Part shown: one piece after another, positions 23,805 through 46,256 of the stretch
How positions within the stretch are numbered: position 1 is the stretch's first letter
Layout: each line of letters starts with the position of its first letter
Source of the DNA: Armatimonadota bacterium
GTDB taxonomy: Bacteria; Armatimonadota; UBA5829
Length of the DNA: 64,000 nucleotides
Assembly: GCA_039679645.1 (NCBI GenBank)
Contig: JBDKUO010000009.1
Location: forward strand, 74,324 to 138,323
Reading direction: 5' to 3'
Translations under genes and position numbers: made by a program
Notes under the pieces: model-generated
What the model was told of the DNA's origin: nothing
Databases searched by the model: none
Seen by the model: the letters and a program-made list of their open reading frames with translations, nothing else

Positions 23805-24476
23805 TCAGGCAAGCTGCATTTTTATTGGCTGAAGCATGCTTTCATGCATGACACTACATAAATCGGAAAGCACCTGCTCAACATGTTCTCTCGCGCAATC
23901 TCTCGCGAGTTTCTCATCACCGGCGATGATGGCATTAACAAGAGCATCATGAATCTCCGGGCAGCACACCGACTGTCTCAGCCAAGTTGTATTGCGAATT
24001 GTATTTGTTATAACGCGAGAATTTGCAAACGTCCGACTCAACAATTGTGATCTCGTACACTGCACTATAAAACTATGCAGTTCGCTGTCAGCTTTTAGGC
24101 AGCCTTTGGTGCCCTGTGCTATTGCACAGTTCGTAAATACCGTCGCCAAGTCCCTGATCTTTTGGCGCTGCGCATCTGTTGCACGAACCGCGCAAAATCC
24201 GGCAGCCATCTGTTCCATGGACGACCTGATCATTATTGCGCATTCTATCTCATCAAATGACCAATCCATAACTTGCGCCCCGCGGTTCGGCTCATTGACG
24301 ACAAGACCATCATGTTCCAACATACATATCGCTTTGGCGACCGGAATACTGCTTGTATTGAGTTTATGCGCAAGATCACATTGTACCAGCCGCATCCCGG
24401 GCTTTAGTTTTCCGCATTCGATCAGATCACGCAGTTGCTGGTAGACATTCTCAGATATGTGTTCTGTTGACTTCAT
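23805..24476 (-). CDS. GntR/FadR-family transcriptional regulator (copy 1)
   Basis: MKSTEHISENVYQQLRDLIECGKLKPGMRLVQCDLAHKLNTSSIPVAKAICMLEHDGLV is a GntR winged-helix N-domain, followed by an FCD-type C-domain. The ATG at 24474-24476 is taken as the start because the listed ORF begins at TTG. Confidence 0.8.
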   Translation of the reverse strand: MKSTEHISENVYQQLRDLIECGKLKPGMRLVQCDLAHKLNTSSIPVAKAICMLEHDGLVVNEPNRGAQVMDWSFDEIECAIMIRSSMEQMAAGFCAVRATDAQRQKIRDLATVFTNCAIAQGTKGCLKADSELHSFIVQCTRSQLLSRTFANSRVITNTIRNTTWLRQSVCCPEIHDALVNAIIAGDEKLARDCAREHVEQVLSDLCSVMHESMLQPIKMQLA

Positions 24477-24520
24477 GTTAATTCGACTCAATAAATCATA
24501 TTAGCAGCCTATCATTATTA

Positions 24521-24568
24521 TCTATACCATGATTACAACTGCATGTCAACTATAAGATGCATTATTTC
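24521..24568 (-). promoter_or_regulatory. Conserved sigma70-like promoter box of the GntR genes (TTGACA, 17 nt, TATAGA, as read on the minus strand)
   Basis: Plus-strand tcTATACCATGATTACAACTGCATGTCAACTATAAG. The same box recurs at 29531, 33911 and 38262. Confidence 0.45.
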
Positions 24569-24657
24569 ATTCGTGTTTGTAGTGCTATGTGATGGCTTAT
24601 TTGCTGTAGCATTCTTGGAGGTTGTCATGCATTCGATGGATAAAAATATGCCGGGCG

Positions 24658-24697
24658 CACAAAAAAGCAGGTGGGATCAAAATTGATCCCACCTGCT
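24658..24697 (-). terminator. Rho-independent terminator of paralog 1
   Basis: Perfect hairpin gcaggtgggatca-aaatt-gatcccacctgc at 24667-24696, followed on the minus strand by a T-run. A second small hairpin, gtgcggtcacccgcac, lies between the stop codon and the terminator. Confidence 0.7.
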
Positions 24698-24743
24698 CAT
24701 TTAGTCAGTGCGGTCACCCGCACTTATTACGTATTAACTTAGC

Positions 24744-27700
24744 CTACGGAGTCACAGGGTTGAGTGAGTAGCCAAGGCCGGGATATGGAGCATATCCGCC
24801 ATAGCCGGTGCCTCCAGCATACTCACTATCAACTATCTGGCTTCCTAGAGTATATGCACCCGTACCATTAACTACCTTGAACAGAATACTGTTCAAGCCC
24901 TTATGCAGTGTAATGGGACAAGAATTACCGCCGATTAAGTGAGTTGTTTCGGTGCGGAACACTTCTGTGCCACCATTAACATAATACTTCAGCGCGTCAT
25001 CAGAACCCGACACCAAAACAACACTAGGCGCTTCAGTGTCAGACCAGACATAAATATGCGCGTAGGCAGCGCAGTTGATATTGGTTCCGCCAAGCACTGC
25101 ATTCAAGTCGAGTTTCTCGTTTGCACTTGTCGCTTTGAACCAGGTCTTGCCGGCAGTTGTCATACCTTCAACCGGGAAGACAGTGGCGCCGATACTCGAC
25201 TCACCAATGAAGTCTGTATCAAGGTTCGTCACTTTGTCCGTGCCTGCTGTGAACGGACCAAGCACCAGATACTGGATCGGATACTTGTAGGTGCCGGTAA
25301 ACGGCAGAGCATGCATATTGTCTGAGTCATAGACCCAGTCGGCTCGCTCGTTTCTCATGTAGAGAACGGTTCCGTCCGTATCCTTACTTACACATCCGCG
25401 AACTCTGATGTAATCGTCATTGGCAGGCATCGTGAACTCACCGCCGCACAGCACCTTGATCGGCGAGGCGGAGCCGTCACTGATGTTGAAGCTGCTGGTC
25501 CCAACGTTGGAAACCTTGCCCCATGTCTTGATGAACAGACCCTGAGACACGCTGTCAGCAGCGGCCTTGTTGTTCATACTAAGTTCGGCAAGTGCCGGAC
25601 CGTCCGGACATGTTGTGGTTGCCAGACGTGTGATTGCCGTTGCTTCGACATATTTCTCATCGGTACCGGTAGTCGTATAGACTTTACCTGCGACAGAAAC
25701 CTTGTCGCCGAACTGAATAGTCGTCGGCATGCTGGTCATATGGACCTTGATCCCGGATGTGCGGTCCGCGGTCTCAATGAAGATTGTGTCGGTAGGCACG
25801 CCGCCGCCGGGTGTAGCAGTAACTACTGCACTGGGGATGATTGTACCACCACCATCAGGAGTGTTCTTTGCTCCCGGTATAGCGTACGGCTGCGTACCAA
25901 GTGTTGTGTCGCGGAGCGCTATCTCACCAATACCAATGTACTGAGTGGTCTTAAGATCGTCACGGTATGCCTGAGGCTGCGTATAAGCATTGCTGCTAGA
26001 CGCTGTGGCATATACACGCCAGTACCTTGCAGAGGTGCTGGGGAACTTGATGGTATCCGCAGCAGCAGTGTAAGGCATCTTGACCAAGACCTTCATTGTG
26101 GCTGTGCCAGTGCCGGCAAGGACAGAGGTTATGCTGCCGGCATTGCTTAGGGCGTTGCTTGTCCAGGATGTAGGATACCCACCAGTACCGGTTGTGGTGC
26201 TGTAGAGTGTATTCCATGTCCCTGTCGCCGGATCCTGCCCGTCAGCGAGATAGTCTATACTATAGGATTTAGCATTAGCATATGTCCAATACACAGTGGC
26301 TTCGGATAGGCTTCTATCCTGCCCCAAGTCCACTTGAAGGTATGTGGGCATATTCTTAATGAAGTTGGCTGTGGTTTCAGGAGGCGTCTGGAACCAAGTG
26401 CTGAAAACGCCATCGGTAGCCTTGCTTGCAGTATATGTTGAATATACGTTGTTTGATGCTGCTGTTGCAAGCAAAGCCCAGTTGAATTTTGCATTGTTGA
26501 GCGTAAAGTTAGCCGTAGCAGAGCTTGTCTCGCTGCTAAGGGTCACTGTGCTCGCATCAGTGCCGGCATAGCCTTCTTTCCAGGAGGACACATAATATGT
26601 TGTGCTGCCGCTGACTCCACCGACCGACACCTGATAAGTGCCGTCCGAGTTGGTTGTCGTGTAGATGCCGTCAGCGTTATCAATCAGCGGATGATCTGAT
26701 GTTGACACAGATACCATTGCGCCAGCCACCGGATTGCCATTGGCATCCGTAACGGTGCCGTGGATTCCGTAAGACTGGTTTGTGTCGTATCCTGTGTCGA
26801 ATGCCAAAAGTTGGTCAGCCCATCCGGCATAGAGTGTGCCGTCGTCAGCCAATGCAAGGCTGCCGGGGATAGGAACATTATATGAGCCTATTGGACGGTT
26901 TGTGCCACAGGATATGTTATATCCATTCGGCTGGATATAGTTGGAGATGTTTGCGTTATAAGCCCAGAGAATCTTTGGATGATCTCCAAGGTCCTCAACG
27001 CAGTATACATGACCTTTTCCAGCAGCCACATAAACGATCTTATGGCTGCTGTTGCTGATAACAACAGCATTGGACATATCAGCGCCCAGTTCGCCGGGCA
27101 TGTCCAGGGTCCACTTGATTGTGGCGGAAGTGCCGTTATCTGTTACTGCGACCAGTCTGCCGCTGGGATTATATCTCACTCTGGAACCCTGATTGTTTGT
27201 CGGGATCGGGTCTATGGCGGAACCGGTAACATACAGGGTTCCGTCCGCGCCGACAGCCGGTGAGAACATACAACTGGTGGGAAGATCGATCTGCCAATTA
27301 GCTACACCGGTGAGCGGGCTGAATGAAGTCAGCTCCTTGCATGCATGGTCGGTAGCTGAGCCATTGTTATACCACTGGTCGAAACCGGCAATATACATTT
27401 TAGTTCCGTCATTGGACATGACCGGCTGGCTTCTATGGAAGCCGAATGTTTTTTGCCAAAGGAGTGTAGGTTGTACACCAGTGCCGTTGTCGGCAAGGGC
27501 CATAAAGCTCTTGTGCGGGATGTAATTCGGGCTGGTAATGGTCGTCCAATCGTAAATCCATCCACCGCCCCTGAAGATCACGTTCTTGGTCGTGCCGCTT
27601 ACATCCATCGGAATGACAAGGCACGTTCCGGTTTCGGGTCCTACACCACTTTCCAAAGTGGGCTGGAAGTTTCCGCCACTATCTTGGGAATCTCCATAGC

Positions 27701-28376
27701 CCCAGTCTCGGGCCATGGTGGTCGGATTAATTGCCTGAACCATTCCACTCAGGTCGCCGTATGAGCTAAAGGCTGTGGTGACATAAATTTCGCCATTGGC
27801 TGCAACTGTAGGAGTACAGGCTGCATATCTGTTCCAGGAGTTTGGTTTGAGAGCGCAGTTTATAGACCACGCAGAAGCTCCTGAAGCCGGATTTATGTCA
27901 TGCATAAAAAGGTTGGTCCCGTTTCCGGATGCATCAAACCCGGGTCCAGCCAGGTAGCTATAGTTGCTGTTTGTGCCAGTGACAGCAGGGCCGCCCAGCA
28001 TGGCGTCGTAATTGTTGTCGCCCGGTTTACAGAGGGTAGGTATGCTAGTGTTCCACTGCAATACACCTGATGAGTTAAACTTGGCAAGTGACCAGGGCCT
28101 AGAACAGCTCACAACCACGTTTCCGTCAGGATCAACGATGATTCCGCACTTGGCGACGTCCGACCAGGCGGTCGTTGAGCAAGCCGAATCTATGGTGAGT
28201 GTGCGCTGCCATTTCAATACTGGCTTTGCGATTGTTGTGGCCGGGCTGCGTCCGCTGTTGTAAGCATCACGCTGGAATCTCGGCCAGTTAGCCGTCGGTA
28301 TCTGTGCTATCGCTGCCAGCGATAATGCCAAAACACCGATCAAGACTAATACTGCAATCCATCTTGTCTTTTGCAT
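24744..28376 (-). CDS. Large secreted multidomain protein, paralog 1 of 5 (signal peptide, PQQ-like beta-propeller, CarbopepD_reg-like domain, F5/8 discoidin domain, conserved C-terminal module with a GY-rich tail)
   Basis: The N-terminus is MQKTRWIAVLVLIGVLALSLAAIAQIPTANWPRFQRDAYNSGRSPAT. DGT(L/I)Y propeller blades repeat along the sequence. ...HGTVTDANGNPVAGAMVSVSTS...DGTYQ is CarbopepD_reg-like. ...ATDGVFSTWFQT...YLQVDLGQDRSLSEATVYW is discoidin. The C-terminus reads ...LNSILFKVVNG...GYGGYAPYPGLGYSLNPVTP. Confidence 0.85.
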   Translation of the reverse strand: MQKTRWIAVLVLIGVLALSLAAIAQIPTANWPRFQRDAYNSGRSPATTIAKPVLKWQRTLTIDSACSTTAWSDVAKCGIIVDPDGNVVVSCSRPWSLAKFNSSGVLQWNTSIPTLCKPGDNNYDAMLGGPAVTGTNSNYSYLAGPGFDASGNGTNLFMHDINPASGASAWSINCALKPNSWNRYAACTPTVAANGEIYVTTAFSSYGDLSGMVQAINPTTMARDWGYGDSQDSGGNFQPTLESGVGPETGTCLVIPMDVSGTTKNVIFRGGGWIYDWTTITSPNYIPHKSFMALADNGTGVQPTLLWQKTFGFHRSQPVMSNDGTKMYIAGFDQWYNNGSATDHACKELTSFSPLTGVANWQIDLPTSCMFSPAVGADGTLYVTGSAIDPIPTNNQGSRVRYNPSGRLVAVTDNGTSATIKWTLDMPGELGADMSNAVVISNSSHKIVYVAAGKGHVYCVEDLGDHPKILWAYNANISNYIQPNGYNISCGTNRPIGSYNVPIPGSLALADDGTLYAGWADQLLAFDTGYDTNQSYGIHGTVTDANGNPVAGAMVSVSTSDHPLIDNADGIYTTTNSDGTYQVSVGGVSGSTTYYVSSWKEGYAGTDASTVTLSSETSSATANFTLNNAKFNWALLATAASNNVYSTYTASKATDGVFSTWFQTPPETTANFIKNMPTYLQVDLGQDRSLSEATVYWTYANAKSYSIDYLADGQDPATGTWNTLYSTTTGTGGYPTSWTSNALSNAGSITSVLAGTGTATMKVLVKMPYTAAADTIKFPSTSARYWRVYATASSSNAYTQPQAYRDDLKTTQYIGIGEIALRDTTLGTQPYAIPGAKNTPDGGGTIIPSAVVTATPGGGVPTDTIFIETADRTSGIKVHMTSMPTTIQFGDKVSVAGKVYTTTGTDEKYVEATAITRLATTTCPDGPALAELSMNNKAAADSVSQGLFIKTWGKVSNVGTSSFNISDGSASPIKVLCGGEFTMPANDDYIRVRGCVSKDTDGTVLYMRNERADWVYDSDNMHALPFTGTYKYPIQYLVLGPFTAGTDKVTNLDTDFIGESSIGATVFPVEGMTTAGKTWFKATSANEKLDLNAVLGGTNINCAAYAHIYVWSDTEAPSVVLVSGSDDALKYYVNGGTEVFRTETTHLIGGNSCPITLHKGLNSILFKVVNGTGAYTLGSQIVDSEYAGGTGYGGYAPYPGLGYSLNPVTP

Positions 28377-28509: not shown

Positions 28510-28650
28510 TTCCTTTATGTCCCCTCCTTCTCGGTTGCGAGGGGGCTTTCTATGAAGCCCTCAACGCGAAATCTGCCGAGAAGCCTACCGCCCCGCATCG
28601 CGAGGCGGCGTCTTCTCTGTGCTTTATGGCCACTATATCTTCAAATCTGC
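28510..28650 (-). promoter_or_regulatory. Conserved structured leader of paralog 1: two hairpins plus a conserved box, about 200 nt upstream of the start codon
   Basis: Hairpin A is gagggggctttc-tatg-aagccctc. Hairpin B is ccgccccgcatcgcgaggcgg. The box ggccactatatcttcaaatctgcagcctgcc follows. Copies are present upstream of all five paralogs, and their stems carry compensatory base changes. Confidence 0.5.
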
Positions 28651-28752: not shown

Positions 28753-29433
28753 TCAGGCAAACTGCATTATTTTTGGCCTAGGCATGCTTTCATGCATGAC
28801 CCGGCACAAATCGGAAAGCACTTCCTCAACATGTTCTCTCGCACGGTCTTTCGCGAGTTCTTCATCACCGGAGATGATGGCATCAACAAGACTATCATGA
28901 ATACTTGGACAGCATACCGGCAGCCTCAGCCACGTTGCATTGCGGATTGTGTTTGTAATTACACGGGAATTGCTGAGAGTCCGACTAAGCAATTGTGAAC
29001 CCGAACACTGCACAATGAAAGCATGTAAGTCGGAATCCGCCTTCAGACAGCCGGCGGTGTCCTGTACAATCGCGCAATCTGTGAATGCCTTGGCAAGTTC
29101 CTTGATCTTTTCGCGCTGCTGGGTGGTTGCCCGAATCGCGCAAAATCCGGCAGCTATTTGCTCCATAGACGATCTGATCATGATCGCGCATTCTATCTCA
29201 TCAACTGACCAGTCTCTGACCTGTGCGCCCCGATTGAGTTCGCATACGACTAGCCCATCGTGCTCCAACCTGCATATTGCTTTTGCGACAGGAATGCTGC
29301 TTGTATTAAGCATCCGAGCAAGATCACGCTGTATTAGACGCATGCCGGGTTTCAGTTTTCCGCATTCAATCATATCGCGCAGTCGTTCGTAGACAGTCTC
29401 GGATATGTTTTCAGTCAGTTTCATTTCAATCAT
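28753..29433 (-). CDS. GntR/FadR-family transcriptional regulator (copy 2, about 75% identical to copy 1)
   Basis: MKLTENISETVYERLRDMIECGKLKPGMRLIQRDLARMLNTSSIPVAKAICRLEHDGLV.... The start is placed by alignment with copy 1. An alternative ATG lies at 29424. Confidence 0.8.
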   Translation of the reverse strand: MIEMKLTENISETVYERLRDMIECGKLKPGMRLIQRDLARMLNTSSIPVAKAICRLEHDGLVVCELNRGAQVRDWSVDEIECAIMIRSSMEQIAAGFCAIRATTQQREKIKELAKAFTDCAIVQDTAGCLKADSDLHAFIVQCSGSQLLSRTLSNSRVITNTIRNATWLRLPVCCPSIHDSLVDAIISGDEELAKDRAREHVEEVLSDLCRVMHESMPRPKIMQFA

Positions 29434-29530
29434 GTCTTTCTGATGTAAAACCACACTGCACTTAACTATAATACAGTGTTGCCGGCTATTCAGAAGGCGC
29501 ACTACATCTATGTGCTTAGCTCGACATTAG

Positions 29531-29578
29531 CCTTTATACCATGATTGTCGGGTTATGTCAATCAAAATATATATCATC
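29531..29578 (-). promoter_or_regulatory. Conserved GntR promoter box (copy 2)
   Basis: ttTATACCATGATTGTCGGGTTATGTCAATCAAAAT. On the minus strand this gives TTGACA, a 17-nt spacer, then a TATA-type -10 element. Confidence 0.45.
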
Positions 29579-29681
29579 ATAGTGTTTTATATAATACAAA
29601 TACTGTTATGCCATATGGTGTGCTATATGCTGTAATATCCATAGCGCATCCGCATCGCTAATTTTTATAAGTTTTTAGCGC

Positions 29682-29717
29682 AAAAAAACAGGCAGGGTCT
29701 GAATTGACCCCGCCTGT
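29682..29717 (-). terminator. Rho-independent terminator of paralog 2
   Basis: A-run at 29682-29687, then the hairpin acaggcagggtc-tgaattg-accccgcctgt. Confidence 0.7.
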
Positions 29718-29763
29718 TTTAAGTTAGTCAGTGCGACTATGCGCACGCCTTATGTCGCTTGCC

Positions 29764-37889: not shown

Positions 37890-38030
37890 GCCTTTATGTC
37901 TCCTCCTTACTCAATTGCGAAGGAACTCTCTTTGAAGCCCTCAACGCTGAATTAGCCAAAGTGCAGCGGCCTCGCAATGTGAGGCGGCTTTCTCTGTGCT
38001 TTACGGCCACTACTTTTTAATATGCAGTTT
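37890..38030 (-). promoter_or_regulatory. Conserved structured leader of paralog 3. A second copy of hairpin B lies at about 38170-38195.
   Basis: ctcaattgcgaaggaactctctttgaagccctcaacgctg...gcggcctcgcaatgtgaggcggc.... An extra gccgccccaagatccgaggcggc, followed by ccggccaccgg, sits at 38168-38210. Confidence 0.45.
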
Positions 38031-38261
38031 GCCTGAGGCATACTTTTACGCATGACTAGGCACAAACCAGCAAGTACTTACGGATATGTGTTCCGCCAGT
38101 TTCTTGTTGTGTTATCAACTGTTCACTGCATCTAGATTATTATCCGTTATTGCTCGATGCTGAATGCCGCCCCAAGATCCGAGGCGGCACTCTCGCACTT
38201 GCCAATCCGGCCACCGGATTGCAGTCAGCTTTCCTCAACGGCTACTGACTCATCACTACCA

Positions 38262-38310
38262 TCTATACCATGGTGATTACGGGTCGTCAACACAAATATG
38301 TACATAATTG
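38262..38310 (-). promoter_or_regulatory. Orphan copy of the GntR promoter box
   Basis: tcTATACCATGGTGATTACGGGTCGTCAACACAAATATG. Confidence 0.4.
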
Positions 38311-38502
38311 ATATTTCAGTTGCTATTTAACCGATCTCTTGTACTTTATTGAGGTGATATTTTGTATCGCTATTAATACATCACTTGCTGTCATAAACGC
38401 TGCAGCATGTAAGTGCTTTTTAGTTCTTTTTAATTGGATGTTGGCAGTTAGCGTGTGTGGTGGATTCATCGCCGCAGTGGCCTGGTGTGGCTGATATTAC
38501 AA

Positions 38503-38537
38503 AAATCAGGTGGAGCCGATTTGACCCCACCTGATTT
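38503..38537 (-). terminator. Rho-independent terminator of paralog 4
   Basis: A-run acaaaaa, then the hairpin tcaggtggagccgatttgaccccacctga. A gtgcggagaatccgcac hairpin lies between the stop codon and the terminator. Confidence 0.6.
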
Positions 38538-38583
38538 CACTTATCTATTGTGTGCGGAGAATCCGCACGTTTTGTTGTTTGCC

Positions 38584-41500
38584 CTACGGAGTCGCAGGAT
38601 TGAGTGAGTAGCCCAGTCCAGTGGCCATATATTGAGTATAACCACCATAACCGGTGCCTCCATAGGAATCGCTGTCAACGAACTGGCTGGAAAGCTTGAA
38701 CGTGCCGGTGTTGTTTACAACCTTAAAGAGTAAGCTGTTCAAGCCCTGATGAAGAGTGATGTTATATGAACCATCCTGCCCGATTGCGCAGCTTCGACCA
38801 GTAGGAAATTCCGATTCATCCTTCGTATACTGCAGGACTCCATTGACATATACCTTCAACCAGTCATCAGAACCGGTTACTATCGCCACAGCAGGCGCCT
38901 CGGTCTCGGACCACAAATACAGCTGAACATAAGCCGCTGAAGAGGCATTGGTTCCTCCGAGCACTGAGTTGATGTCGAGTATGCCATTAGCGCTTGTCCC
39001 CACAGTCCAGGTCTTGCCTGCGGTTGTAAGACCCGCAGACGGCATAACCGTCGTGCCGATTGATGTCTCACCGATGAAGTCCTCATCAATCAGGTCGTAA
39101 GCATTGGTTGGAGCAGGATCAGTGGTGAACGGACCAAGCACCAGATACTGGATCGGGTAGTCATATGCGCCCGTGAACGGCAGGGCGTGCATGTCATCTG
39201 CTCCGTAGACCCAGTCAGCTCTCTCATTTCTCATATAGAGAACGGGGCCGTCGGCATCCTTACCCACAACGCCACGCACTCTGATGTAGTCATCATTGAC
39301 GGGCTGAGTCATAGTCGTGCTGCAAAGTACCTTGATCGGACTGGCAGAGCCATCACTGATTGCGAAGTTTCCACTGCCTGCCGTGGAATTGGAGACCTTG
39401 CCCCAAGTGTCGACAAGCATTCCCTGGCTAATTGCATCAGCAGCGGCTTTGTTGTTCATTGCCATATCGGCAGGTAATGGACAGGCGGGGTCGGTGGTTG
39501 TTGTCAGGCGAGCTACCGTGCCTGCATTTATATATTTCTCACCGTCAGCAGTAACAGCAACAGTGCCATACACATAAACCCTATCACCGAAGTGTATACT
39601 GGAGGATACTCCGCTCTTGTATACACGCATACCTGCATTACGATCATCTGATTCTATGAATATAGTGTCGGTCGGAACACCACCTCCATCGCACGTTGCT
39701 GTAACGACAGCATCATTTATGATAGCTGCTTGACCAACTTCAAGTGCTCGTGCGCCACCAACTGTTGACTGCGCAGCAACCTTCGATGGATCGCGAAGTT
39801 CGATCTCCCACATAGATGGTGTGGAAGCAGATGACAGGCTTGTGACGCCGCCGACTACACCATACCTGGCAGACGTAATCGTTAATTTCCAGAGCTGTGC
39901 TTCCGGAACAGACGATGGGATCTTGATAACATCGACAGCAGTCTTCTGACCACCAATGTTTGTACCTGCTGTGATCTTTACCGGAAATGCAACAGTAGGA
40001 TTGGCACCGTAAAAATCAACAGGGAACCCGCGGTTATCAGTCACTGTGGTTGCATACGCTGGGTTCCAATTTACACCGTTGTCCGTGCTATACTCCAGAG
40101 TGTATGAAGCACCGGCAATCCACCACCAGTAGATCACAGCCTCGTCTATTTTCTGAGGCGATCCAAGGTCAATCGTATAGGTTACAGGCAAAGAAGTGGC
40201 CTGGCAGCGAGTAGCCCAACTACCTGTTACCAATCCATCAATTGCATTGGCTGCCGGATAACTGGTATTCTCATTTGATGCAGTGATTGTGCCAGTCCTT
40301 GCCCAGTCATACTTGGCACTTTCTAGAGTAAAGTCTGTGCCGGATATTTTTGTATTTGCGGCTGAAAATGTAACTGTAATATTATCACTGCCCTCATAAT
40401 TTAGCGCACAGGCAGCAACATTATACGATACCGGGAATGTGGCATCGGGATCAAACTTCGGCGTTATTTGATAGGTGCCGTCAGCGTTTGTTTTTGTCCA
40501 CATTCTATTGGGGTTATCAGCCAATGGCTGCGAGTATGTACTTACTGATACCCATGCATTCGCAATCGGGTTGCCATCGGCATCCTTAACCGTTCCGGTT
40601 ATACCCTCAGGAGCACTGATGCTGAAACCTGCCGGGAATTTGAACATTCTGCCCTTCAGGACGGCTAACACTGACCCATCATCATTTATTGCCAGATTGG
40701 GTGGAACCATGGTACAGCTGGTCGAACAAGTAGTGTATTTCAGGTCAGGAGCAAAGTACTCCCAAAGAATCTTACCGTATTCGCCCTCATCCCTTATGCA
40801 GTAGATTCGGCCGTTTCCGGAAGCAAGGTAAATTACATTCTTGCCATCGTTGTCGGTAATAGTGGCACAAGCCGTTGTATCGGAAGCGCCATCATCCGGC
40901 AAAACCATAGTCCACTTAATAACACCATTGTTCTGACCGCCATCCCAAATGGCAACCAGATTACCGGCTGGATTGCTGCCAGGAGGATATGACCATGAAG
41001 AGCCACTATCGCATCCTGGGTTGGTTCCGCCGCACACATATATCATATTACCTGAACCGAGTGCAGGTGAATAGGCATGGTTTCCACCAGTAGCAAGTTT
41101 GAACTTCACAGAACCATTTGATGTGTTATATGCAACAAACTGATTACTGCAAACAAAACCGACTTTGATCGCTGATCTACTCTGCATATAGGTCTGCTTG
41201 CCGGCGCAATATACCGTGCTTTCATCGTCGGAGAGCACTGGAGCACCCTGGAAACAACCAGCATTAGTATTTCCTGCTACGCCCCAAAGGTATGTTGAGG
41301 CAGTTCCATCATCGCGCAATGCAATAATGCTGGGAATGCCATCGTTAACGGAATGCTCATAGCATTGAAAACCAGTGCTATAGATAATGTTATTACCACC
41401 AAGGTAGCCTACTGCATATGATCCATGCATTCTGCCCTGGCCTTTACTGGCTGTGTTGAAATGCCACTTCTCAGTTCCATCCAGCGAATTATATGCCATC

Positions 41501-42162
41501 ACCGGACCCTGCGGATCAGCAGGAGAGCACCTCATATTACCCCAGTATACTGTTCCATCAGGACCGACTGCAATATTGGAATCGCAACTAAATGGTGTCT
41601 GAGAAGTTGCATATCCCGGATATGTGCAGATATACGTATTGATTTTCGGTGAGGTTATCCAGCCTGGGATTGTTCCATCTGCATTGATTTTTTTAATTAA
41701 CCCATGAGATGACGGAAGGTATCCAAGTGGGCTCAGTATCGACCAACTTGTGTCATTGCCACAAATGGTAATACCATTAAAAGCCACAACACTATCATCA
41801 TAGCCTACTTCGGCCTTGGTCTTGTACCATATAAAGTTCCCGTTGGTGTCGTACTTAGCAAGCGCAAAGTCAAAGTCGGCAAATAGATAAATGTTCCCAT
41901 CCGGATCAGTTTGTATACCGTTATGGGTAACCGACTTATTTGTATCCGTATTCCAACGGGCTGGAGTTGTTTGTGCATCAACATTCACCTGCCATTCAGG
42001 AATAGGTTTTGCAATTGATGTAGCTGCGCTGTTGTGGCCGCTATTGTGATAGTCATGTCCGGACTTCGGCCAGTTTTTACTCGGTATCTGTGCGTATGCC
42101 GATATTGACATCGCAAGGATGCAGCCTACTGCCAATAACACGATCCATTTTGCTTTCTGCAT
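38584..42162 (-). CDS. Large secreted multidomain protein, paralog 4 of 5
   Basis: The N-terminus is MQKAKWIVLLAVGCILAMSISAYAQIPSKNWPKSGHDYHNSGHNSAATSIAKP. It shares the domain order and the C-terminal module. The C-terminus is ...LNSLLFKVVNN...GYGGYTQYMATGLGYSLNPATP. Confidence 0.85.
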   Translation of the reverse strand: MQKAKWIVLLAVGCILAMSISAYAQIPSKNWPKSGHDYHNSGHNSAATSIAKPIPEWQVNVDAQTTPARWNTDTNKSVTHNGIQTDPDGNIYLFADFDFALAKYDTNGNFIWYKTKAEVGYDDSVVAFNGITICGNDTSWSILSPLGYLPSSHGLIKKINADGTIPGWITSPKINTYICTYPGYATSQTPFSCDSNIAVGPDGTVYWGNMRCSPADPQGPVMAYNSLDGTEKWHFNTASKGQGRMHGSYAVGYLGGNNIIYSTGFQCYEHSVNDGIPSIIALRDDGTASTYLWGVAGNTNAGCFQGAPVLSDDESTVYCAGKQTYMQSRSAIKVGFVCSNQFVAYNTSNGSVKFKLATGGNHAYSPALGSGNMIYVCGGTNPGCDSGSSWSYPPGSNPAGNLVAIWDGGQNNGVIKWTMVLPDDGASDTTACATITDNDGKNVIYLASGNGRIYCIRDEGEYGKILWEYFAPDLKYTTCSTSCTMVPPNLAINDDGSVLAVLKGRMFKFPAGFSISAPEGITGTVKDADGNPIANAWVSVSTYSQPLADNPNRMWTKTNADGTYQITPKFDPDATFPVSYNVAACALNYEGSDNITVTFSAANTKISGTDFTLESAKYDWARTGTITASNENTSYPAANAIDGLVTGSWATRCQATSLPVTYTIDLGSPQKIDEAVIYWWWIAGASYTLEYSTDNGVNWNPAYATTVTDNRGFPVDFYGANPTVAFPVKITAGTNIGGQKTAVDVIKIPSSVPEAQLWKLTITSARYGVVGGVTSLSSASTPSMWEIELRDPSKVAAQSTVGGARALEVGQAAIINDAVVTATCDGGGVPTDTIFIESDDRNAGMRVYKSGVSSSIHFGDRVYVYGTVAVTADGEKYINAGTVARLTTTTDPACPLPADMAMNNKAAADAISQGMLVDTWGKVSNSTAGSGNFAISDGSASPIKVLCSTTMTQPVNDDYIRVRGVVGKDADGPVLYMRNERADWVYGADDMHALPFTGAYDYPIQYLVLGPFTTDPAPTNAYDLIDEDFIGETSIGTTVMPSAGLTTAGKTWTVGTSANGILDINSVLGGTNASSAAYVQLYLWSETEAPAVAIVTGSDDWLKVYVNGVLQYTKDESEFPTGRSCAIGQDGSYNITLHQGLNSLLFKVVNNTGTFKLSSQFVDSDSYGGTGYGGYTQYMATGLGYSLNPATP

Positions 42163-42254
42163 TATATGTCCTCTCCTCTCTTATTGTCATCTCTTTGTTG
42201 TAGAGATGGTTAAGCACAAACATTGTTGCTTGCGCAAAAACTCCGGTAATGAAA

Positions 42255-42370
42255 TCCTCCCTTCACGAATACGAGGGGGCTTTCTTTGAAGCCCTCAACG
42301 CATAATTTACCGAGGAGTAGCCGCCTCGTATTTTCGAGGCGGCGTCCTCTTTCACGGCCACTACGCTTTA
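42255..42370 (-). promoter_or_regulatory. Conserved structured leader of paralog 4
   Basis: cgagggggctttctttgaagccctcaacgcataatttaccgaggagtagccgcctcgtattttcgaggcggcgtcc. Hairpin B is a perfect 9-bp stem here. Confidence 0.5.
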
Positions 42371-42675
42371 ATGATGCGTACCAGGATATTAGCTGAGAAA
42401 CACGCAGTACGCCACCGAAAAATGATCAAACTGTAACGAAAAACGGTTATGCGCGCTTTCTACGGATTACAGTGATTGACGATTTTACAATCTGCGCTAC
42501 AGTTAATGCTACAGCATATGTGACAAGGGCATTATGCTTTCTCTTTACTTGTTTGTCAATAGGGAATTTGCTGCGTTATGCAAAATATTTCATAATTAAA
42601 ATGTCGCTAACCGGAGGAATAGAATTGCTGATGCAAATAGATCATATTGCATTGTAAAACGAGGGGGCTTTATGA

Positions 42676-42712
42676 GAAATCAGGTGGGGTCTGTTGACCC
42701 CACCTGATTTCG
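42676..42712 (-). terminator. Terminator-like hairpin downstream of paralog 5
   Basis: aatcaggtggggtc-tgttg-accccacctgattt. Confidence 0.5.
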
Positions 42713-42755
42713 TTATCTATTGTGTGCGAAGAATCCGCACATTTTGTCGTTTGCC

Positions 42756-45700
42756 CTACGGAGTCGCAGGGTTGAGTGAGTAGCCCAGTCCGGCGAATGG
42801 AGTGTAACCACCATACCCGGTTCCTCCATAGGCCTCGACATCAACTATCTGGCTTGCAAGAGCGAAGCCACCATCACCGTTGACAACTTTGAACAGTATA
42901 CTGTTCAGACCCTTATTCAGCGTGATAGCAGTCGGACCATCTATACCGATGGTGCAACCGCGTGCTGCGTCAATACTGAATGCCTGAGCGCCGTTGACGA
43001 AATACTTAAGTGCGTCATCGGAACCAGTCACCAATCCAACGCTTGGCGAAGCAGTCTCGGACCATACATAGAGGTATACGTATGCAACTGCATTCGGTGT
43101 CACTCCACCAAACGCAGCATTCAGATCCAGAATGCCGTCAGCACTTGTCGCTGTGAACCAAGTCTTGCCCGCGGTCGCAAGGCCATCAGCCGGCATAATC
43201 GTTGTGCCGATCGATGTCTCTCCAATGAAGTCCTCAGCAAGAAGCTGAGTTCTGGTCTTGCCCTCATCCGTATACGGACCGAGCACCAGATACTGGATCG
43301 GATAGTCGTATGCGCCGGTAAACGGCAGAGCGTGCATATCGTCCGAATCATAGGCCCAGTCTGCCCGCTCATCTCTCATGTAGAGAACCGTGCCGTCAAG
43401 ATCTTTGCCGACAACACCGCGGACTCTGATGTAATCATTATCCGCAGGCATGGTAGCCGTACTGCTGCACAGTACCTTGATCGGCGAAGCAGAACCGTCG
43501 CTGATCTTGAAGCTGCCGGTTGCAGAGTCAGAGACCTTGCCCCATGTCTTGATGAACATACCCTGAGACACGCTGTCACCAGCAGCCTTGTTGTTCATGC
43601 TGAGTTCGGCAACCGCAGGACCGTCAGGAGAGGCGGTCGTCGTCGCGCGGGAAATAGAGGTAGCAGCAATGTATTTCTCACCATTGGCAGTGTAGATTTT
43701 ACCGGCAATGTTGACCTTGTCGCCAAACTGTATCGTCGCCGGCATGCCGGTCATCTGAACCTTGATGCCTGCTGTGCGGTTTGCTTCCTCTACGAAGATC
43801 GTGTCAGTAGCCACGCCGCCGCCAGCAGTAGCAGTGACTACCGCGCCGTTGACTTTGACTGGATCACCTTCTTCGCCGGACTTTGCACCTGCGATAGTAG
43901 GCTCAAGCGCTTCCTTTGACGGGTCGCGGAGTTCGACTTCCCAGATAGATGCGTAAGGTGATCCATTCTTTGTAGAAGTATAGCTTCCTACAACACCGTA
44001 ACTGGCTGCACTAACGTTTAGTCTCCAATACTGTGCGCTCACAGACGGGAACTTGATAACAGCCACAGCGGTCTTCTGTCCGCCAGGACCGACATTAACG
44101 GCAGCATATGGAGGACCGGAGATCGTAGGATCGGCGGCATACCAGTCAATCGGGAAACCGCCGTTGCCTGCTGTGGTTTCGTAGGGTTTTCCGTATATAC
44201 CCGGAGTTGTCCAGTCAGTGCCATTCTTGCTGTATTCCAATGAATAGCTGCTCGGACACATCCACCAGGAGTAGATCACAGCTTCATTTACTGATCTTTC
44301 CTGTCCAAGATCTATGGTCAGAACAGGAGCTGAGCCTGTTGATGCAAAACGAGTAGCAGTGTCCCCGGTCGCAAATCCATCAACAATGTTGACAGCCGGA
44401 TAGCTGCTGTTTTCATCCGTGCTGGTTACACTGGAACCAATCGCCCAGTTGAACTTAGCCTTACCAAGAGTGAAGTCCTTGGTGATCTTATCTGTGAATG
44501 CATTGATGGCAGCTGTCTGATTAGCGCTTCCCTCGTAACCGACCGCACTCGCCGCCACATAGTATGTGCCGACGGTGTCCGGCGATATCTGATAGGAACC
44601 ATCAGGGTTAGTCTTCGTCCAGAACCTGCTTGCGTTGTCGGCAAGAGGATTGGTAGATGTAGATGCGGACACCCATGCGCCTGCAATAGGATTGCCGTCG
44701 GCATCCTTGACTGTTCCACTTATGCCTTCAGGGCTGTTGGGATTGAAACCAGCCGGGAACTTGAAGAGCTGATCGTTGAAGGCAACATACAATGTGCCGT
44801 CATCAGCCACAGCCGGTGTCGGCGGTGTATAACCTACACTGCCCCAGCAGCAGAACTTCAGATCAGTTGCCTGCCAGGTCCAGAGGAGCTTGCCATAAGT
44901 GCCCTGATCCTGTATGCAGAAGAGTCTGCCGTTACCGGTTGCAACATATATAACAGTCGGTGTCGTGTTGATTGTCGCTAAAGCCGAGGTATCGGAATCG
45001 ACATCATCAGGCAGTTCATATGTCCACTTGACCGTAGCGGAACTGCCGTTATCTGTGACGGCAATGACCTTGCCCGGAGTATTGATCGGAGGCACGTCAG
45101 TCTTTGCGCCGGTCCTAAAGTGACCGCCGACAACGTATATCGTACCGTCGGCGCCAAGCGCAGGAGATACTGCGTGTGTGCCACCGGTCTGTATCGACCA
45201 CTTCTTTGCACCAGTGTCGGCATTATATGCAAACAGAGTGTCCGGATAGGTATAAATGACATTGGTGTTTTCGCTATGCCATGCCCAGCCATCGCGGCCT
45301 GCTACATAGAGCGTTGCTCCATCACCTGAAAGCACCGGGCCTGATGTGAAGAATCCGGTGTTGGTATAGTCGGCTGTCCAGAGCAGGGTTGCATTTGTGC
45401 CGTCATCGCGCACTGCAAATAAATCGTTCATGAACTCGCCAGGAGCACATTCTTCATAGTATACGCCGCCGGAATTGTAGATGACGTTTTTCAATCCGCC
45501 GCCATAACTTACCTGCTTGACAGCACAGGAGCCGAGGCTTCGACCCACGCCGTATGTGTTGTAAGTCCAATTGACCGTGCCGTTAGACGGGTTAATCGCC
45601 TTCAGGGGGCCATAGGGGCCATAAAATGAATACAGCATATTGCCCAAATATATGGTACCATCAGGACCAACAGCCGCGGAAGAATTGGTACCATAACCAC

Positions 45701-46256
45701 GATATCCGCCCAGCGACGAGTGGCCTGTGCTCGGATCATTGAGGGCTTCGGATTCCCATATAAACGCACCGGTGCTCGTATTTCCAGCACCTATCGTTGC
45801 ATGGGAGTTGGAGTAAACTGGAGGGTTGCCGCCATCATCATCTTCACCGCCCATCCAGGCGAGGATCATCTCAGTGGTGCCATTGCTCCAGATTGTCGGA
45901 CCGTTATACCAGCCATGGTTATCGTTGGAGGTAAAACCAGAGGCCTGCCACATCTGACTTCCATCTGCGGAAGAATACTTGCCCAGACCGAAATAGTCGT
46001 CCCACTGAACGTATATGTTTCCGTCAGGACCGATTTTGACACCCTCGTATGAGGGAATCTCACCCTGAACCACCTCAATCGTATGCCGCCAACTCGGAGC
46101 CGGCTTTGCAATTGAAGTTGCCGGGCTCTTGCTGCTGTTGTAGTAGTCACGCCCGGATTTTGGCCAGTTTGTCGACGGTAGCTGCGCATATGCCGATATC
46201 GACATTACACAGATACAGACGATGGCCAACAGTGTAATCCATCTTGCTTTTTGCAT
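42756..46256 (-). CDS. Large secreted multidomain protein, paralog 5 of 5
   Basis: The N-terminus is MQKARWITLLAIVCICVMSISAYAQLPSTNWPKSGRDYYNSSKSPATSIAKP. The C-terminus is ...LNSILFKVVNGDGGFALASQIVDVEAYGGTGYGGYTPFAGLGYSLNPATP. Confidence 0.85.
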   Translation of the reverse strand: MQKARWITLLAIVCICVMSISAYAQLPSTNWPKSGRDYYNSSKSPATSIAKPAPSWRHTIEVVQGEIPSYEGVKIGPDGNIYVQWDDYFGLGKYSSADGSQMWQASGFTSNDNHGWYNGPTIWSNGTTEMILAWMGGEDDDGGNPPVYSNSHATIGAGNTSTGAFIWESEALNDPSTGHSSLGGYRGYGTNSSAAVGPDGTIYLGNMLYSFYGPYGPLKAINPSNGTVNWTYNTYGVGRSLGSCAVKQVSYGGGLKNVIYNSGGVYYEECAPGEFMNDLFAVRDDGTNATLLWTADYTNTGFFTSGPVLSGDGATLYVAGRDGWAWHSENTNVIYTYPDTLFAYNADTGAKKWSIQTGGTHAVSPALGADGTIYVVGGHFRTGAKTDVPPINTPGKVIAVTDNGSSATVKWTYELPDDVDSDTSALATINTTPTVIYVATGNGRLFCIQDQGTYGKLLWTWQATDLKFCCWGSVGYTPPTPAVADDGTLYVAFNDQLFKFPAGFNPNSPEGISGTVKDADGNPIAGAWVSASTSTNPLADNASRFWTKTNPDGSYQISPDTVGTYYVAASAVGYEGSANQTAAINAFTDKITKDFTLGKAKFNWAIGSSVTSTDENSSYPAVNIVDGFATGDTATRFASTGSAPVLTIDLGQERSVNEAVIYSWWMCPSSYSLEYSKNGTDWTTPGIYGKPYETTAGNGGFPIDWYAADPTISGPPYAAVNVGPGGQKTAVAVIKFPSVSAQYWRLNVSAASYGVVGSYTSTKNGSPYASIWEVELRDPSKEALEPTIAGAKSGEEGDPVKVNGAVVTATAGGGVATDTIFVEEANRTAGIKVQMTGMPATIQFGDKVNIAGKIYTANGEKYIAATSISRATTTASPDGPAVAELSMNNKAAGDSVSQGMFIKTWGKVSDSATGSFKISDGSASPIKVLCSSTATMPADNDYIRVRGVVGKDLDGTVLYMRDERADWAYDSDDMHALPFTGAYDYPIQYLVLGPYTDEGKTRTQLLAEDFIGETSIGTTIMPADGLATAGKTWFTATSADGILDLNAAFGGVTPNAVAYVYLYVWSETASPSVGLVTGSDDALKYFVNGAQAFSIDAARGCTIGIDGPTAITLNKGLNSILFKVVNGDGGFALASQIVDVEAYGGTGYGGYTPFAGLGYSLNPATP

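Follow-up and report, generated by a model that had tools for sequence, protein, structure and literature searches.

A tandem array of five secreted modular proteins with recombining tails and a candidate leader RNA in Armatimonadota

The array and its genomic neighborhood

The window, a 64,000-nt stretch of a contig from the MAG of an uncultured Armatimonadota bacterium, encodes five tandem paralogs of 1166-1210 aa on the minus strand, with two FCD-type GntR genes interspersed. The coding features are as follows.

23805-24491, minus strand: GntR/FCD regulator R1; the listed ORF starts at TTG and the first Met is residue 6 (24476)
24744-28376, minus strand: paralog A, 1210 aa; signal peptide, PQQ-like propeller, CarboxypepD_reg, CBM32/discoidin and OB-OB-PA14-like C-terminal module
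28753-29502, minus strand: GntR/FCD regulator R2; translation probably begins at an internal Met
29764-33294, minus strand: paralog B, 1176 aa; the 3' end is a conversion tract common to D
34142-37738, minus strand: paralog C, 1198 aa
38584-42162, minus strand: paralog D, 1192 aa; its 3' end (38584-~39189) and that of B have been homogenised
42756-46256, minus strand: paralog E, 1166 aa; the copy chosen for structure modelling
46760-47788, minus strand: BNR_2 (sialidase-fold) protein, 342 aa, without a signal peptide; upstream of E

The positions of the ORFs, an alignment of all five proteins from end to end (42-47% identity to paralog A, mean column identity 57%) and the Pfam domains bear out the first-pass annotation, which had described a five-gene minus-strand array with one architecture. 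Its statement that no transposase is present also holds, judged by ORF size alone: the intergenic regions contain no transposase-sized ORF. Paralog A is 100% identical to an NCBI protein from an Armatimonadota MAG, and all named relatives of the family are from Armatimonadota. Tandem duplicates of the family also occur in loci L002, L013 and L017.

Paralog E is the copy with orthologs elsewhere, which in other genomes of Armatimonadota lie beside a BNR gene. Orthologs of the BNR protein (70-75% identity) are encoded directly upstream of an E-type gene in five other loci, making the BNR gene a conserved upstream partner of the E-type gene. GH123, GH42, GHL6 and sulfatase genes are found near family loci in other genomes.

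R1 and R2 share 77% identity. They had been called cognate regulators of the array, a designation based on adjacency: no shared operator was found, and none of the other loci examined contains an FCD-GntR gene. In two distant relatives the place is taken by a divergent GntR-HTH/periplasmic-binding regulator. The interleaved FCD-GntR paralogs may add metabolite-responsive control.

Domain architecture of the paralogs

The predicted domain order is a cleavable signal peptide, a propeller, a CarboxypepD_reg Ig-like spacer, a CBM32 discoidin domain and an OB-OB-sandwich tail. Signal peptides are readable by eye as M-x-K-x-(R/K), a hydrophobic run and then A-x-A, with Q following. Pfam CarboxypepD_reg and F5/8 type C domains occur in all five paralogs, the latter (the discoidin domain) being a CBM32. 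PQQ_2 passes the Pfam cut-off in paralog E only, and a profile comparison with the PDB confirmed the PQQ-like repeats (E-value 1e-58 to designed propellers). The features noted earlier, namely the WP(K/R)...NSG motif, the motifs of the C-terminus and a Gly/Tyr tail, are all present; the tail ends GLGYSLNP(A/V)TP.

The full-length model is moderate (pLDDT 79), with low confidence in the propeller loops. The closest propeller structures are the non-catalytic YxaL, BamB and Rv3035, together with designed propellers. Across 17 relatives, the propeller residues that never vary belong to the repeat scaffold (Gly, Asp, Trp and Tyr, in DG-x-hydrophobic-Tyr and A-x-D-x-G-W); judged from the sequence alignment, no candidate active-site set stands out among them. 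A Pfam scan detected no CAZy-type catalytic domain in the paralogs, and the lambda-carrageenase propeller gave a weak match in paralog D that lies below the cut-off (E 0.0019).

Amino acid identity between paralogs is 25-56% in the propeller and 58-80% in the tail, in keeping with the earlier picture of a diversifying, secreted, binding-type family with conserved ends and a divergent propeller. In the propeller's N-terminal half most paralogs are only 25-37% identical to one another (B-C reach 51%), and synonymous sites there are saturated. The eight-blade, YxaL/BamB-type PQQ-like propeller is thus the hypervariable region, and it presumably serves as the specificity head.

The C-terminal module

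The C-terminal 390 aa were modelled by AF2 with high confidence (pLDDT 90.7, pTM 0.85) as two OB-folds followed by a PA14/GH2-N-like beta-sandwich. This module had been described as unrecognisable. Its fold is recognisable and has thousands of uncharacterised relatives, but profile-HMM and Foldseek searches placed it in no characterised family, and neither Pfam nor NCBIfam has a model for the 390 aa. The best Foldseek matches are the sugar-binding PA14 domains of Flo1, Flo5, Epa1 and MpIBP (E ~1e-4, probability 1.0). The sandwich carries an invariant GSDD motif, which may correspond to the Ca2+/sugar-binding Asp-cis-Asp of PA14 lectins, and an alignment of 34 diverse sandwiches has invariant W, DD and G. 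Pfam PA14 and Glyco_hydro_2_N match weakly on the DD segment, and no member reaches the PA14 cut-off of 24 bits (best 16.6 bits). The assignment to PA14 is a probable one, made by fold and sub-threshold sequence signal.

An exhaustive HMM search with the module matched 2488 cluster representatives. About 40 of these have the whole module, behind varied N-terminal domains, always at the extreme C-terminus and with a conserved terminal motif G(L/I)GY(L/S)LN. Elsewhere the tail, or the OB-OB half of it, stands behind Kelch propellers, FGE-sulfatase, a 3-keto-disaccharide-hydrolase-like domain or GH2, and the OB-OB unit can also take an N-terminal or internal position, as it does before a GH2 enzyme. 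The terminal GLGYSLN is modelled as an edge strand of the sandwich and not as a free signal. At its C-terminus the tail shows neither a transmembrane helix nor a basic cluster, and Pfam/NCBIfam scans that were E-value-limited and not aimed at such domains gave no SLH, PEP-CTERM or T9SS C-terminal domain and no match besides those described here.

Gene conversion between paralogs

About 200 codons before its stop, paralog B changes its nearest relative from C to D. The conversion tract comprises the 3' ~640 nt of B (29764-~30381) and is common to D. Identity of B and D at four-fold sites is 73% in the tail versus 16-17% in the propeller, and the max-chi2 test (B:D versus B:C) gave 172 (p<0.0005) with a breakpoint at alignment column 1169. 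Three readings of the aligned sequences support the gene conversion that had been proposed: mosaic similarity, increased identity at synonymous sites and the max-chi2 tests. The 85-90% nucleotide identity once cited for it was too high: in 50-codon windows identity peaks at 80-87%, and only at the B-D 3' end. Of the two modules thought to be strongly conserved, the tail is so, but the N-terminal stretch consists only of the signal peptide and first strand (61-75% nucleotide identity).

Putative transcription units

Promoter-like sites and hairpins flank the genes.

24521-24549, minus strand: promoter-like site of R1, a consensus match
24659-24724, minus strand: terminator after A; GUGCG..CGCAC hairpin, 15-bp GC-rich hairpin and U6
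29533-29561, minus strand: promoter-like site of R2, a consensus match
29678-29746, minus strand: terminator after B; double hairpin and U7
33909-33937, minus strand: promoter-like site far upstream of B, resembling the R1 and R2 promoters
34066-34124, minus strand: double hairpin after C, homologous to the others, without a U-tract
38262-38290, minus strand: promoter-like site far upstream of C, resembling the R1 and R2 promoters
38497-38568, minus strand: terminator after D; double hairpin and U5
42531-42559, minus strand: promoter-like site of D; TTGACA-N17-CATAAT, 11/12 matches
42676-42741, minus strand: terminator-like double hairpin after E; 16-bp stem, weak U-tract
46559-46587, minus strand: promoter-like site of E, read from the sequence; TTGACA-N17-TAAAAC, TG-extended -10

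These promoters and terminators are consensus matches only, and in a scan promoter-like sites were no commoner than in shuffles (27 versus 26.4). The layout seen at E recurs upstream of homologues in L001, L003, L007 and L010. A leader and a terminator had been assigned to every copy; both are present at all five, but the hairpin after C has no U-tract and that after E a weak one. With a promoter-like site, a leader and a hairpin terminator at each gene, it is plausible that each copy forms a separate transcription unit, as the first-pass annotation held. A sigma-70-type promoter would give each copy its own 5' UTR of at least 250 nt carrying a structured RNA, and transcription of each would end at its own hairpin terminator.

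A candidate leader RNA

Upstream of all five genes lies a leader of ~100 nt that consists of AGUGGCCG and two hairpins.

28535-28635, minus strand: leader A; AGUGGCCA, bipartite hairpin P1 and hairpin P2; covariance model 85.8 bits, MFE z -2.8
33464-33559, minus strand: leader B; covariance model 89.1 bits, MFE z -3.6
37915-38012, minus strand: leader C; covariance model 89.4 bits, MFE z -1.1
38140-38216, minus strand: possible partial second leader, further upstream of C; GUGGCCGGAU and a P1-like hairpin, without P2; weak (E 0.09)
42269-42363, minus strand: leader D; covariance model 87.1 bits, MFE z -4.6
46407-46507, minus strand: leader E; covariance model 73.1 bits, MFE z -4.0

Leader E is the most divergent copy in the window and has compensatory changes in both P1 and P2; the other four are close duplicates. 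The covariance model recovers copies excluded from its seed in L002 (position 7174, E 6e-6), L006, L005 and L014 (E 3e-10, 70% GC). In total there are 12 instances at E <= 0.015 and the one weak partial copy, in eight sequence contexts. The leaders, formerly considered private to each gene, instead represent a single conserved RNA motif, which other genomes carry as well. Its distribution is narrow, all instances being in Armatimonadota or metagenome contigs, and it is absent upstream of the more distant family members L010, L012 and L013. None of 4227 Rfam families matched, even at E<=5.

P1 pairing is kept through complete sequence change in genomes of 40-70% GC (GCCGCCUCG/CGAGGCGGC, UUAUUUG/CAAAUGA and ACUGCCACCCC/GGGGUGGCAGU), and 15 of the 24 pairs have double changes. 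MFE folds recreate P1 and P2, with z of -2.8 to -6.9 in seven of eight copies. The P2 loop is CAnAGA, and an 8-nt core, AGTGGCCG, is invariant, with no covariation. A proposed pairing P0 of this core is unsupported (77% paired). Overall, 92% of the alignment cells are paired versus 82% in shuffles and 42-49% with the structure slid, and 0 of 500 shuffles match the observed values; the alignment was fitted to the model and kinship can beat shuffles without structure, and the slid-structure control preserves relatedness, yet may look better than it should, the structure having been drawn from the same sequences. The leader may act on the mRNA, through stability, translation, or protein or ligand binding.

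Discussion

Several known systems resemble parts of the array. The PA14 lectin adhesins (Flo1/Flo5, Candida Epa1 and the Marinomonas RTX adhesin MpIBP) are likewise large modular extracellular proteins in paralog families, and the ADDG segment of the RTX-adhesin PA14 aligns with the invariant DD segment here. They differ in that the array members fall below the Pfam PA14 threshold, have the domain C-terminally fused to two OB-folds, and lack RTX, GPI or repeat-stalk regions; Ca2+/sugar binding is putative here. YxaL/BamB-type eight-blade propellers and archaeal PQQ-repeat cell-surface proteins are also among the closest systems, but the array propeller varies strongly from one tandem paralog to the next and is joined in one protein with CBM32, CarboxypepD_reg and the OB-OB-PA14-like tail. 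For the discoidin domain, the closest are CBM32s of bacterial glycosidases (Paenibacillus chitosanase/glucanase DD1/DD2, Clostridium perfringens NanJ, GH84 and GH89), from which the array proteins differ in having no recognised catalytic domain.

The sap S-layer homologues of Campylobacter fetus are a recombining family of surface-protein paralogs. Like them, the array has clustered paralogs with one end conserved, the remainder variable, and exchange within the conserved part. It differs from them in that its conserved block is C-terminal, that no inversion or site-specific recombinase was seen, and that it lacks a single expression site, since a promoter-like site, a leader and a terminator accompany every copy. 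The promoter-like site at each of the five copies therefore argues against an expression-site/silent-cassette system. The leader resembles Rfam 'Cis-reg' motifs and orphan riboswitch candidates in that it sits within the 5' UTRs of a single gene family in several genomes, with an invariant single-stranded core and helices backed by compensatory changes; it differs in its lack of an Rfam match, its narrow distribution, and the absence of a recognised terminator or SD-sequestering platform.

The proteins might alternatively form a cell-surface coat (S-layer-like) or act as receptor decoys, with the tail, including GLGYxLN, anchoring or sorting them on the cell's own surface glycan and the exposed propellers diversified by duplication and conversion to evade phages or predators. 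Long structured 5' UTRs that stabilise abundant mRNAs are reported for S-layer genes, and the leaders would mainly do the same. The constant C-terminal placement of the module behind unrelated N-terminal domains, the restriction of named members to Armatimonadota, the hypervariable head and homogenised tail, the recurrent tandem duplicates, and the strong consensus -35 and extended -10, long leaders and strong terminators all suit a coat or decoy. We nevertheless consider it rather unlikely: no anchoring feature appeared in the E-value-limited scans or in the tail itself, the terminal motif is an edge strand, and an OB-OB unit that also stands N-terminally or internally fits a binding accessory better than a sorting tag. 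Less probable still are extracellular carbohydrate-active enzymes with a catalytic propeller (lyase, hydrolase, or PQQ/metal-dependent oxidoreductase), whose other domains target substrate and whose five copies attack different polysaccharides under GntR induction. CAZymes typically carry CBM32 and PA14/GH2-N-like appendages, glycoside hydrolases and a sulfatase adjoin in other genomes, sugar-type regulators adjoin distant relatives, and D has the sub-cut-off carrageenase match; but the nearest structures are non-catalytic or designed, the invariant residues are of scaffold type, no catalytic domain was detected by Pfam, and the propeller's N-terminal half has low identity among most paralogs, with synonymous sites saturated. 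The earlier suggestion of polysaccharide-targeting adhesins or enzymes stands in its carbohydrate-directed role, which fits CBM32, the PA14-like domain and the neighboring genes, and is weakened for enzymes.

The leader could also be a DNA-level element (an operator for GntR or another protein) or a sequence inherited by duplication, its hairpins being incidental GC-rich palindromes. The invariant core and unsupported P0 would suit this, as would the four close duplicates, the failure to find an expression platform (terminator or SD sequestration) in the leader, and a JGI metagenome pattern scan that returned chance-level matches only. It appears improbable given that P1 pairing survives full sequence change and 15 pairs have double changes, that the leader is on the coding strand in every case, 55-170 nt downstream of consensus promoters, and that other motif-carrying loci lack the GntR genes.

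A propeller like those of the non-enzymatic YxaL and BamB, joined to a CBM32 discoidin domain, makes glycan binding rather than catalysis the most likely function. We regard as shown the domain architecture and folds, the exchange between copies, the pairing with the BNR gene, and that the leader RNA is conserved and covaries; glycan binding, where the exported proteins reside and all regulatory functions are inferred. We infer, with a probability of roughly 0.55 for the whole explanation jointly, that this locus arose by lineage-specific expansion of an Armatimonadota family whose members, Sec-secreted modular proteins of ~125 kDa, bind glycans outside the cell in lectin- or adhesin-like capture and have recombining tails, their own transcription and a leader RNA. 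Purifying selection and inter-copy gene conversion would keep the tail uniform as the propellers diverge.

Five secreted paralogs in tandem

The window encodes five large minus-strand ORFs of 1166-1210 aa (paralogs A to E), at exactly the coordinates where the first-pass annotation had placed a five-gene array.

Paralogs of the array and interleaved regulator genes
23805-24491, after A: R1, GntR+FCD regulator (Pfam)
24744-28376, minus: paralog A (ORF)
28753-29502, between B and A: R2, GntR+FCD regulator (Pfam)
29764-33294, minus: paralog B (ORF)
34142-37738, minus: paralog C (ORF)
38584-42162, minus: paralog D (ORF)
42756-46256, minus: paralog E (ORF)

The paralogs can be aligned end to end, with 42-47% identity to A and a mean column identity of 57%. 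All five carry a promoter-like site, a leader, a Shine-Dalgarno sequence and a start codon; the array does not have the layout of cassette-type antigenic variation, with one expression site and promoterless silent copies. A and B are identical to proteins of an Armatimonadota MAG at NCBI, and tandem duplicates of the family also occur in three homologous loci from other genomes (L002, L013 and L017). In the closest relative MAG (L001), a giant Big_12 protein, a small lipoprotein and a BNR (sialidase-fold) gene are in synteny with the window; its contig stops within the E ortholog, which is what a repeat would be expected to cause.

Each protein starts with a Sec-type signal, read from the sequence as M-x-K-x-R/K, a hydrophobic run and AxA before Q, followed by a WP(K/R)xxxDxxNSG strand. 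PQQ_2 (PF13360) exceeds its Pfam cut-off in E only of the five paralogs (33.4 vs 27.6). A PQQ-like propeller, a closed fold of about eight blades, was confirmed by a profile search against the PDB, with 7-9 repeat stretches (E 1e-58). A profile from 17 relatives matches the designed Cake, Bagel and Scone propellers (E down to 1e-58) and 3hxj (1e-24), and it also matches chitosan-binding CBM32 modules from a Paenibacillus glucanase (4zy9, E 3e-20). CarboxypepD_reg (PF13620) is above its 32.3-bit cut-off in A, B, C and E and slightly under it in D (30.2 bits). F5/8-type-C/NedA-like (CBM32) domains were found by Pfam in every paralog, with PF00754 and/or PF22633 over cut-off in all five. The proteins end in ...GYGGYxPYxxGLGYSLNP(A/V)TP.

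The C-terminal module

The last ~390 residues of A-E, here called the tail, have no Pfam domain, and an NCBIfam scan adds nothing. The structural model contains two tandem OB domains, each a five-stranded closed beta-barrel (pLDDT 90.7), and Foldseek matches this OB-OB half to tandem-OB HIN domains. The sandwich that follows resembles PA14 in fold: Foldseek aligns it with the PA14 domains of Flo1, Flo5, Epa1 and MpIBP (E 1.4e-4 to 3e-3, probability 0.97-1.0). GH2 N-terminal domains match equally well, so the PA14 assignment holds at the superfamily level. By sequence, PA14 (PF07691) reaches 16.6 bits at best against a gathering cut-off of 24, and five of 34 diverse members match it at sub-threshold Pfam scores (E 0.0065 or weaker).

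Only a W, a DD pair and one G are invariant in the 34 diverse sandwiches, within the pattern W...GSDDg.kVw.NG...G.N.LL.KV. The sub-threshold Pfam matches to PA14 and Glyco_hydro_2_N fall on the DD segment in a few members, and a PDB profile search aligns this segment with ADDG of the RTX-adhesin PA14 (6m8m). The DD of GSDD may correspond to the Asp-cis-Asp Ca2+/sugar-binding pair of PA14 lectins. In the models, the terminal GLGYS is a beta-strand, which accounts for its conservation and makes a sorting-signal label unnecessary. Pfam and NCBIfam scans of A-E gave no PEP-CTERM/exosortase, LPXTG, T9SS CTD or SLH match, and no hydrophobic helix can be read in the C-terminus (...GYGGYxPYxxGLGYSLNPATP).

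An exhaustive HMM search of 1.84 billion representatives returned 2488 tail relatives at E<1e-3, 344 at <1e-10 and 48 at <1e-30. This overturned the orphan status suggested by a word-indexed search, which had found at least ~5 true relatives with the five-paralog profile and at least 5 with a 29-sequence tail profile. The whole module is C-terminal in ~40 proteins, where it follows PQQ-like propellers, Kelch propellers, FGE-sulfatase+PHP or unassigned domains, usually in the company of CarboxypepD_reg and discoidin domains. The terminal G(L/I)GY(L/S)LN motif is kept throughout this whole-module family. Each half of the module, OB-OB or sandwich, also occurs without the other; OB-OB is found before a GH2 enzyme and in combination with a 3-keto-disaccharide-hydrolase-like domain or LVIVD repeats.

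All source-named family members are from Armatimonadota. A pattern search of genome and metagenome contigs with the tail alignment yielded no loci, because the back-translated patterns are too paralog-specific; a search with a 10-sequence alignment yielded four Armatimonadota loci and two loci with a spacer-domain match only. A literature search for the paralog family or an Armatimonadota RNA motif returned nothing relevant.

Recombination among the paralogs

Along the codon alignment, nucleotide identity forms a mosaic. In the propeller, B is nearest to C and D to E; across the last ~220 codons, B and D reach 80-87%. A-B identity peaks at 84% near columns 976-1025, and C-E identity is 81-85% near columns 1051-1125. 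Four-fold sites are saturated in the propeller (14-44% identity). In the tail they are generally 41-57% identical, rising to 73% for B-D (n=96) and to 69% for B-E over columns 1051-1150, so protein-level constraint does not by itself account for the similarity. A maximum-chi-square test for B:D vs B:C places a breakpoint at column 1169 (chi2 172, p<0.0005): 35% of informative sites favor B:D over B:C to its left and 90% to its right. Four of the five other triplets were also significant. The exchanges are not very recent, since the longest identical run is merely 47 nt.

These patterns support the gene conversion proposed in the first-pass annotation, which had put the shared stretches slightly high at 85-90% identity. 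The homogenized tail and diversifying head of the array represent a clear case of concerted evolution.

A BNR gene accompanies paralog E

A BNR_2 protein of 342 aa with four Asp-boxes is encoded directly upstream of E (46760-47788, minus). It is distantly homologous to GH33 sialidases (E 3e-9), lacks a signal peptide and the N-terminal FRIP motif and looks cytoplasmic. Orthologs with 70-75% identity occupy the same position in five other loci, making six genomes with the window.

BNR orthologs in other loci
L001, 8485-9513
L004, 6462-7481
L005, 295-1338
L007, 6443-7480
L014, 3435-4480

The family gene itself is 43-49% identical between loci, and the BNR gene is thus far better conserved. Its constant position indicates that E and BNR are the ancestral pair and that A-D, R1 and R2 were added by local expansion. 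A second BNR paralog often lies near the ortholog in other loci. The ortholog of L014, from the high-GC Armatimonadetes MAG MFD02416, matches in three consecutive frames and is either a pseudogene or affected by assembly indels. Other neighbors of the family in these loci include GH123, GH42, GHL6, a sulfatase and prepilin-type proteins.

In the window, the genes upstream of BNR encode a 148-aa lipoprotein with the lipobox LVAGC and a weak Big_7 match (47979-48425, minus) and a 3017-aa protein with four Big_12 repeats (48448-57501, minus). Farther along, the genes for a CLP1_P P-loop (polynucleotide-kinase-like) protein and for a member of the histidine-phosphatase family are translationally coupled (57808-59576, minus) and adjoin typA/bipA (59612-61453). 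On the other side of the array, an ORF with a [FeFe]-hydrogenase large-subunit domain, 4Fe-4S motifs and a PAS domain (16605-18377, plus) overlaps a gene for a SpoIIE/PP2C phosphatase (18347-19501, plus); the two look like a sensory-hydrogenase signaling pair. Two ORFs upstream (11914-13845 and 13852-15870) have Cys-rich C-termini that suggest Fe-S clusters. The SpoIIE-like gene is separated from one for a VanW/G5/PG_binding_4 protein (19797-21215) by a single tRNA gene (19661-19732, minus; Rfam 71.4 bits).

Promoters, terminators and regulators

Downstream of every paralog lie two hairpins that are homologous across the array, the first GUGCG..CGCAC and the second a GC-rich stem of 15-16 bp. 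The U-tract comprises six residues after A, seven after B and five after D, is weak after E (UUUCUC) and is lacking after C; a GC-rich hairpin with an immediate U-tract, as in intrinsic terminators, is thus present after A, B and D. Permissive Rfam matches to mir-3136, mir-3926 and mir-5928 (24656-24712, 29685-29720 and 42676-42711) coincide with the terminator palindromes.

Promoter-like TTGACA-N17-(TG)-TAnAnn sites precede E, D, R1 and R2, and likewise homologs in other genomes; they are consensus matches, and a region-wide scan gave no excess over shuffles. The C-B and D-C spacers, each ~845 nt long, contain a similar site that shares a sequence with the R1 and R2 promoters.

Promoter-like sites with AATCA(C)CATGGTATA
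24521-24549, minus: R1
29533-29561, minus: R2
33909-33937, minus: C-B spacer
38262-38290, minus: D-C spacer

All four are placed in the same way relative to the upstream terminator, and the two spacer sites may be relics of lost GntR cassettes. A tblastn search for GntR pseudogene remnants in these spacers found none, leaving the promoter-like site alone in common. Two other readings of promoter motifs were discarded. As a sigma-54 element, TGGCC...GC has a spacing 3 nt too short, and by eye the -12 element is missing in other genomes; CATGGTA, considered as a GntR operator, is the TG-extended -10 and occurs in promoters of unrelated loci too.

R1 and R2 are 77% identical, and both have a winged helix-turn-helix and an FCD domain over cut-offs, as in the FadR/FCD group of GntR regulators. 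They had been proposed as cognate regulators of the paralogs, a proposal for which we found nothing beyond adjacency: in a weak k-mer test that left aside the leader and the extended -10, no 9-mer was common to four or more of the seven upstream regions. Two distant family members from one sample (P0049 and P0050) lack the leader and have, directly upstream, a divergent regulator with a GntR-HTH and a periplasmic-binding domain, which may be a different means of regulating this gene family.

GntR-HTH/periplasmic-binding regulators of the two distant members
L010, 6470-7711
L012, 4313-5503

A structured leader precedes each paralog

A block of ~100 nt is common to all five upstream regions, 200-270 nt before the start codon. 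It consists of single-stranded AGUGGCC(G/A), a purine-rich linker, a bipartite hairpin P1 and a hairpin P2 that bears ..UGAGrrCyUC-AnAGA-rrG.... No Rfam family overlaps the leaders at gathering thresholds or at E<=5; the matches obtained at E<=5 are one tRNA and spurious miRNA-like hits on terminator palindromes.

The leader also occurs upstream of family genes in other metagenomic genomes, where the P1 sequence is wholly changed with its pairing kept. A covariance model seeded with nine copies recovered held-out copies before the second gene of L002 (E 6e-6) and in L006 (0.0065) and L005 (0.011), and matched the 70%-GC Armatimonadetes MAG (L014) at E 3e-10. It found nothing further convincing elsewhere in 165 kb and then 100 kb of loci. 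The leader is not upstream of the more distant family members in L010, L012 and L013, and the 24 matches of a metagenome-wide pattern scan are at about the chance rate, none of them backed by the covariance model.

In an alignment of 12 copies, a small sample fitted to the model, pairing holds in 92% of cells, compared with 82% after shuffling and 42-49% for slid structures. Double changes are seen in 15 of the 24 leader pairs, and none of 500 shuffles reached the observed values. Folds of single sequences give P1 and P2, with z of -2.8 to -6.9 in seven of eight copies. Two further pairings were rejected: P0, between the AGUGGCCG core and the 3' flank of P1, has no covariation support, and pairing of P1/P2 strands with downstream purine-rich segments is, by eye, inconsistent across copies. 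A partial second copy, GUGGCCGGAU with a P1-like hairpin and no P2, lies at 38140-38216 (minus), ~130 nt upstream of the main copy of C and just downstream of the promoter-like site at 38262-38290.

The block shows what marks a structured cis-regulatory leader, a conserved fold and covariation across the 5' UTRs of functionally related genes, and a functional mRNA element is favored. That the block is instead a DNA site or a passive duplicate seems improbable to us. By eye, no terminator or SD-sequestering alternative is evident as an expression platform, and no conserved small ORF for a leader peptide precedes the paralogs. The leader is a compact candidate regulatory RNA outside Rfam, with covariation support.

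Function and significance

Secreted glycan binding is the best-supported function of the paralogs, to which we give a probability of roughly 0.55. This reading is based on two recognizable carbohydrate-binding folds, CBM32 and PA14-like, two OB-folds, a propeller of the BamB/YxaL scaffold type, the absence of a catalytic signature and the glycan-related neighbors. The variable propeller would then be the specificity element, and the homogenized tail would supply constant binding or anchoring. That the tail serves as a surface coat or anchor overlaps with this model and, as an explanation in its own right, appears rather unlikely. The paralogs could also be true enzymes, which we consider still less probable than a coat or anchor.

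Beyond secreted glycan binding, we tentatively consider, as a doubtful but bolder proposal, that the AGUGGCCG-P1-P2 leader is a new cis-acting RNA class (riboswitch or protein-binding) dedicated to a hitherto undescribed, Armatimonadota-specific secreted lectin-like family, with the tail a new envelope-targeting or glycan-anchoring module on dozens of passenger domains. If true, the leader class, the tail module and the conserved sialidase-fold partner would define a new glycan-recognition system.

None of the folds of the paralogs is new, and recombining paralog families of modular binding proteins are already known. The novelty lies in the undescribed OB-OB-PA14-like module and the Armatimonadota family that carries it, in the conserved pairing with BNR and in a leader RNA absent from Rfam. 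The Armatimonadota are widespread and barely studied; to our knowledge, nothing is known of how they meet their surroundings, and there is almost no experimental genetics in the phylum. The tail module, as yet unnamed, has a confident model and relatives in metagenomes by the thousands. It could enter domain databases and is probably a marker of the phylum's secreted or surface proteome. The finding would carry greater weight if the leader responds to a ligand or protein, or if the tail is a phylum-specific anchoring device. If the tail acts as an anchoring lectin, or the leader as a riboswitch, either would be a new tool and new biology; otherwise the locus still illustrates a tidy modular lectin family.
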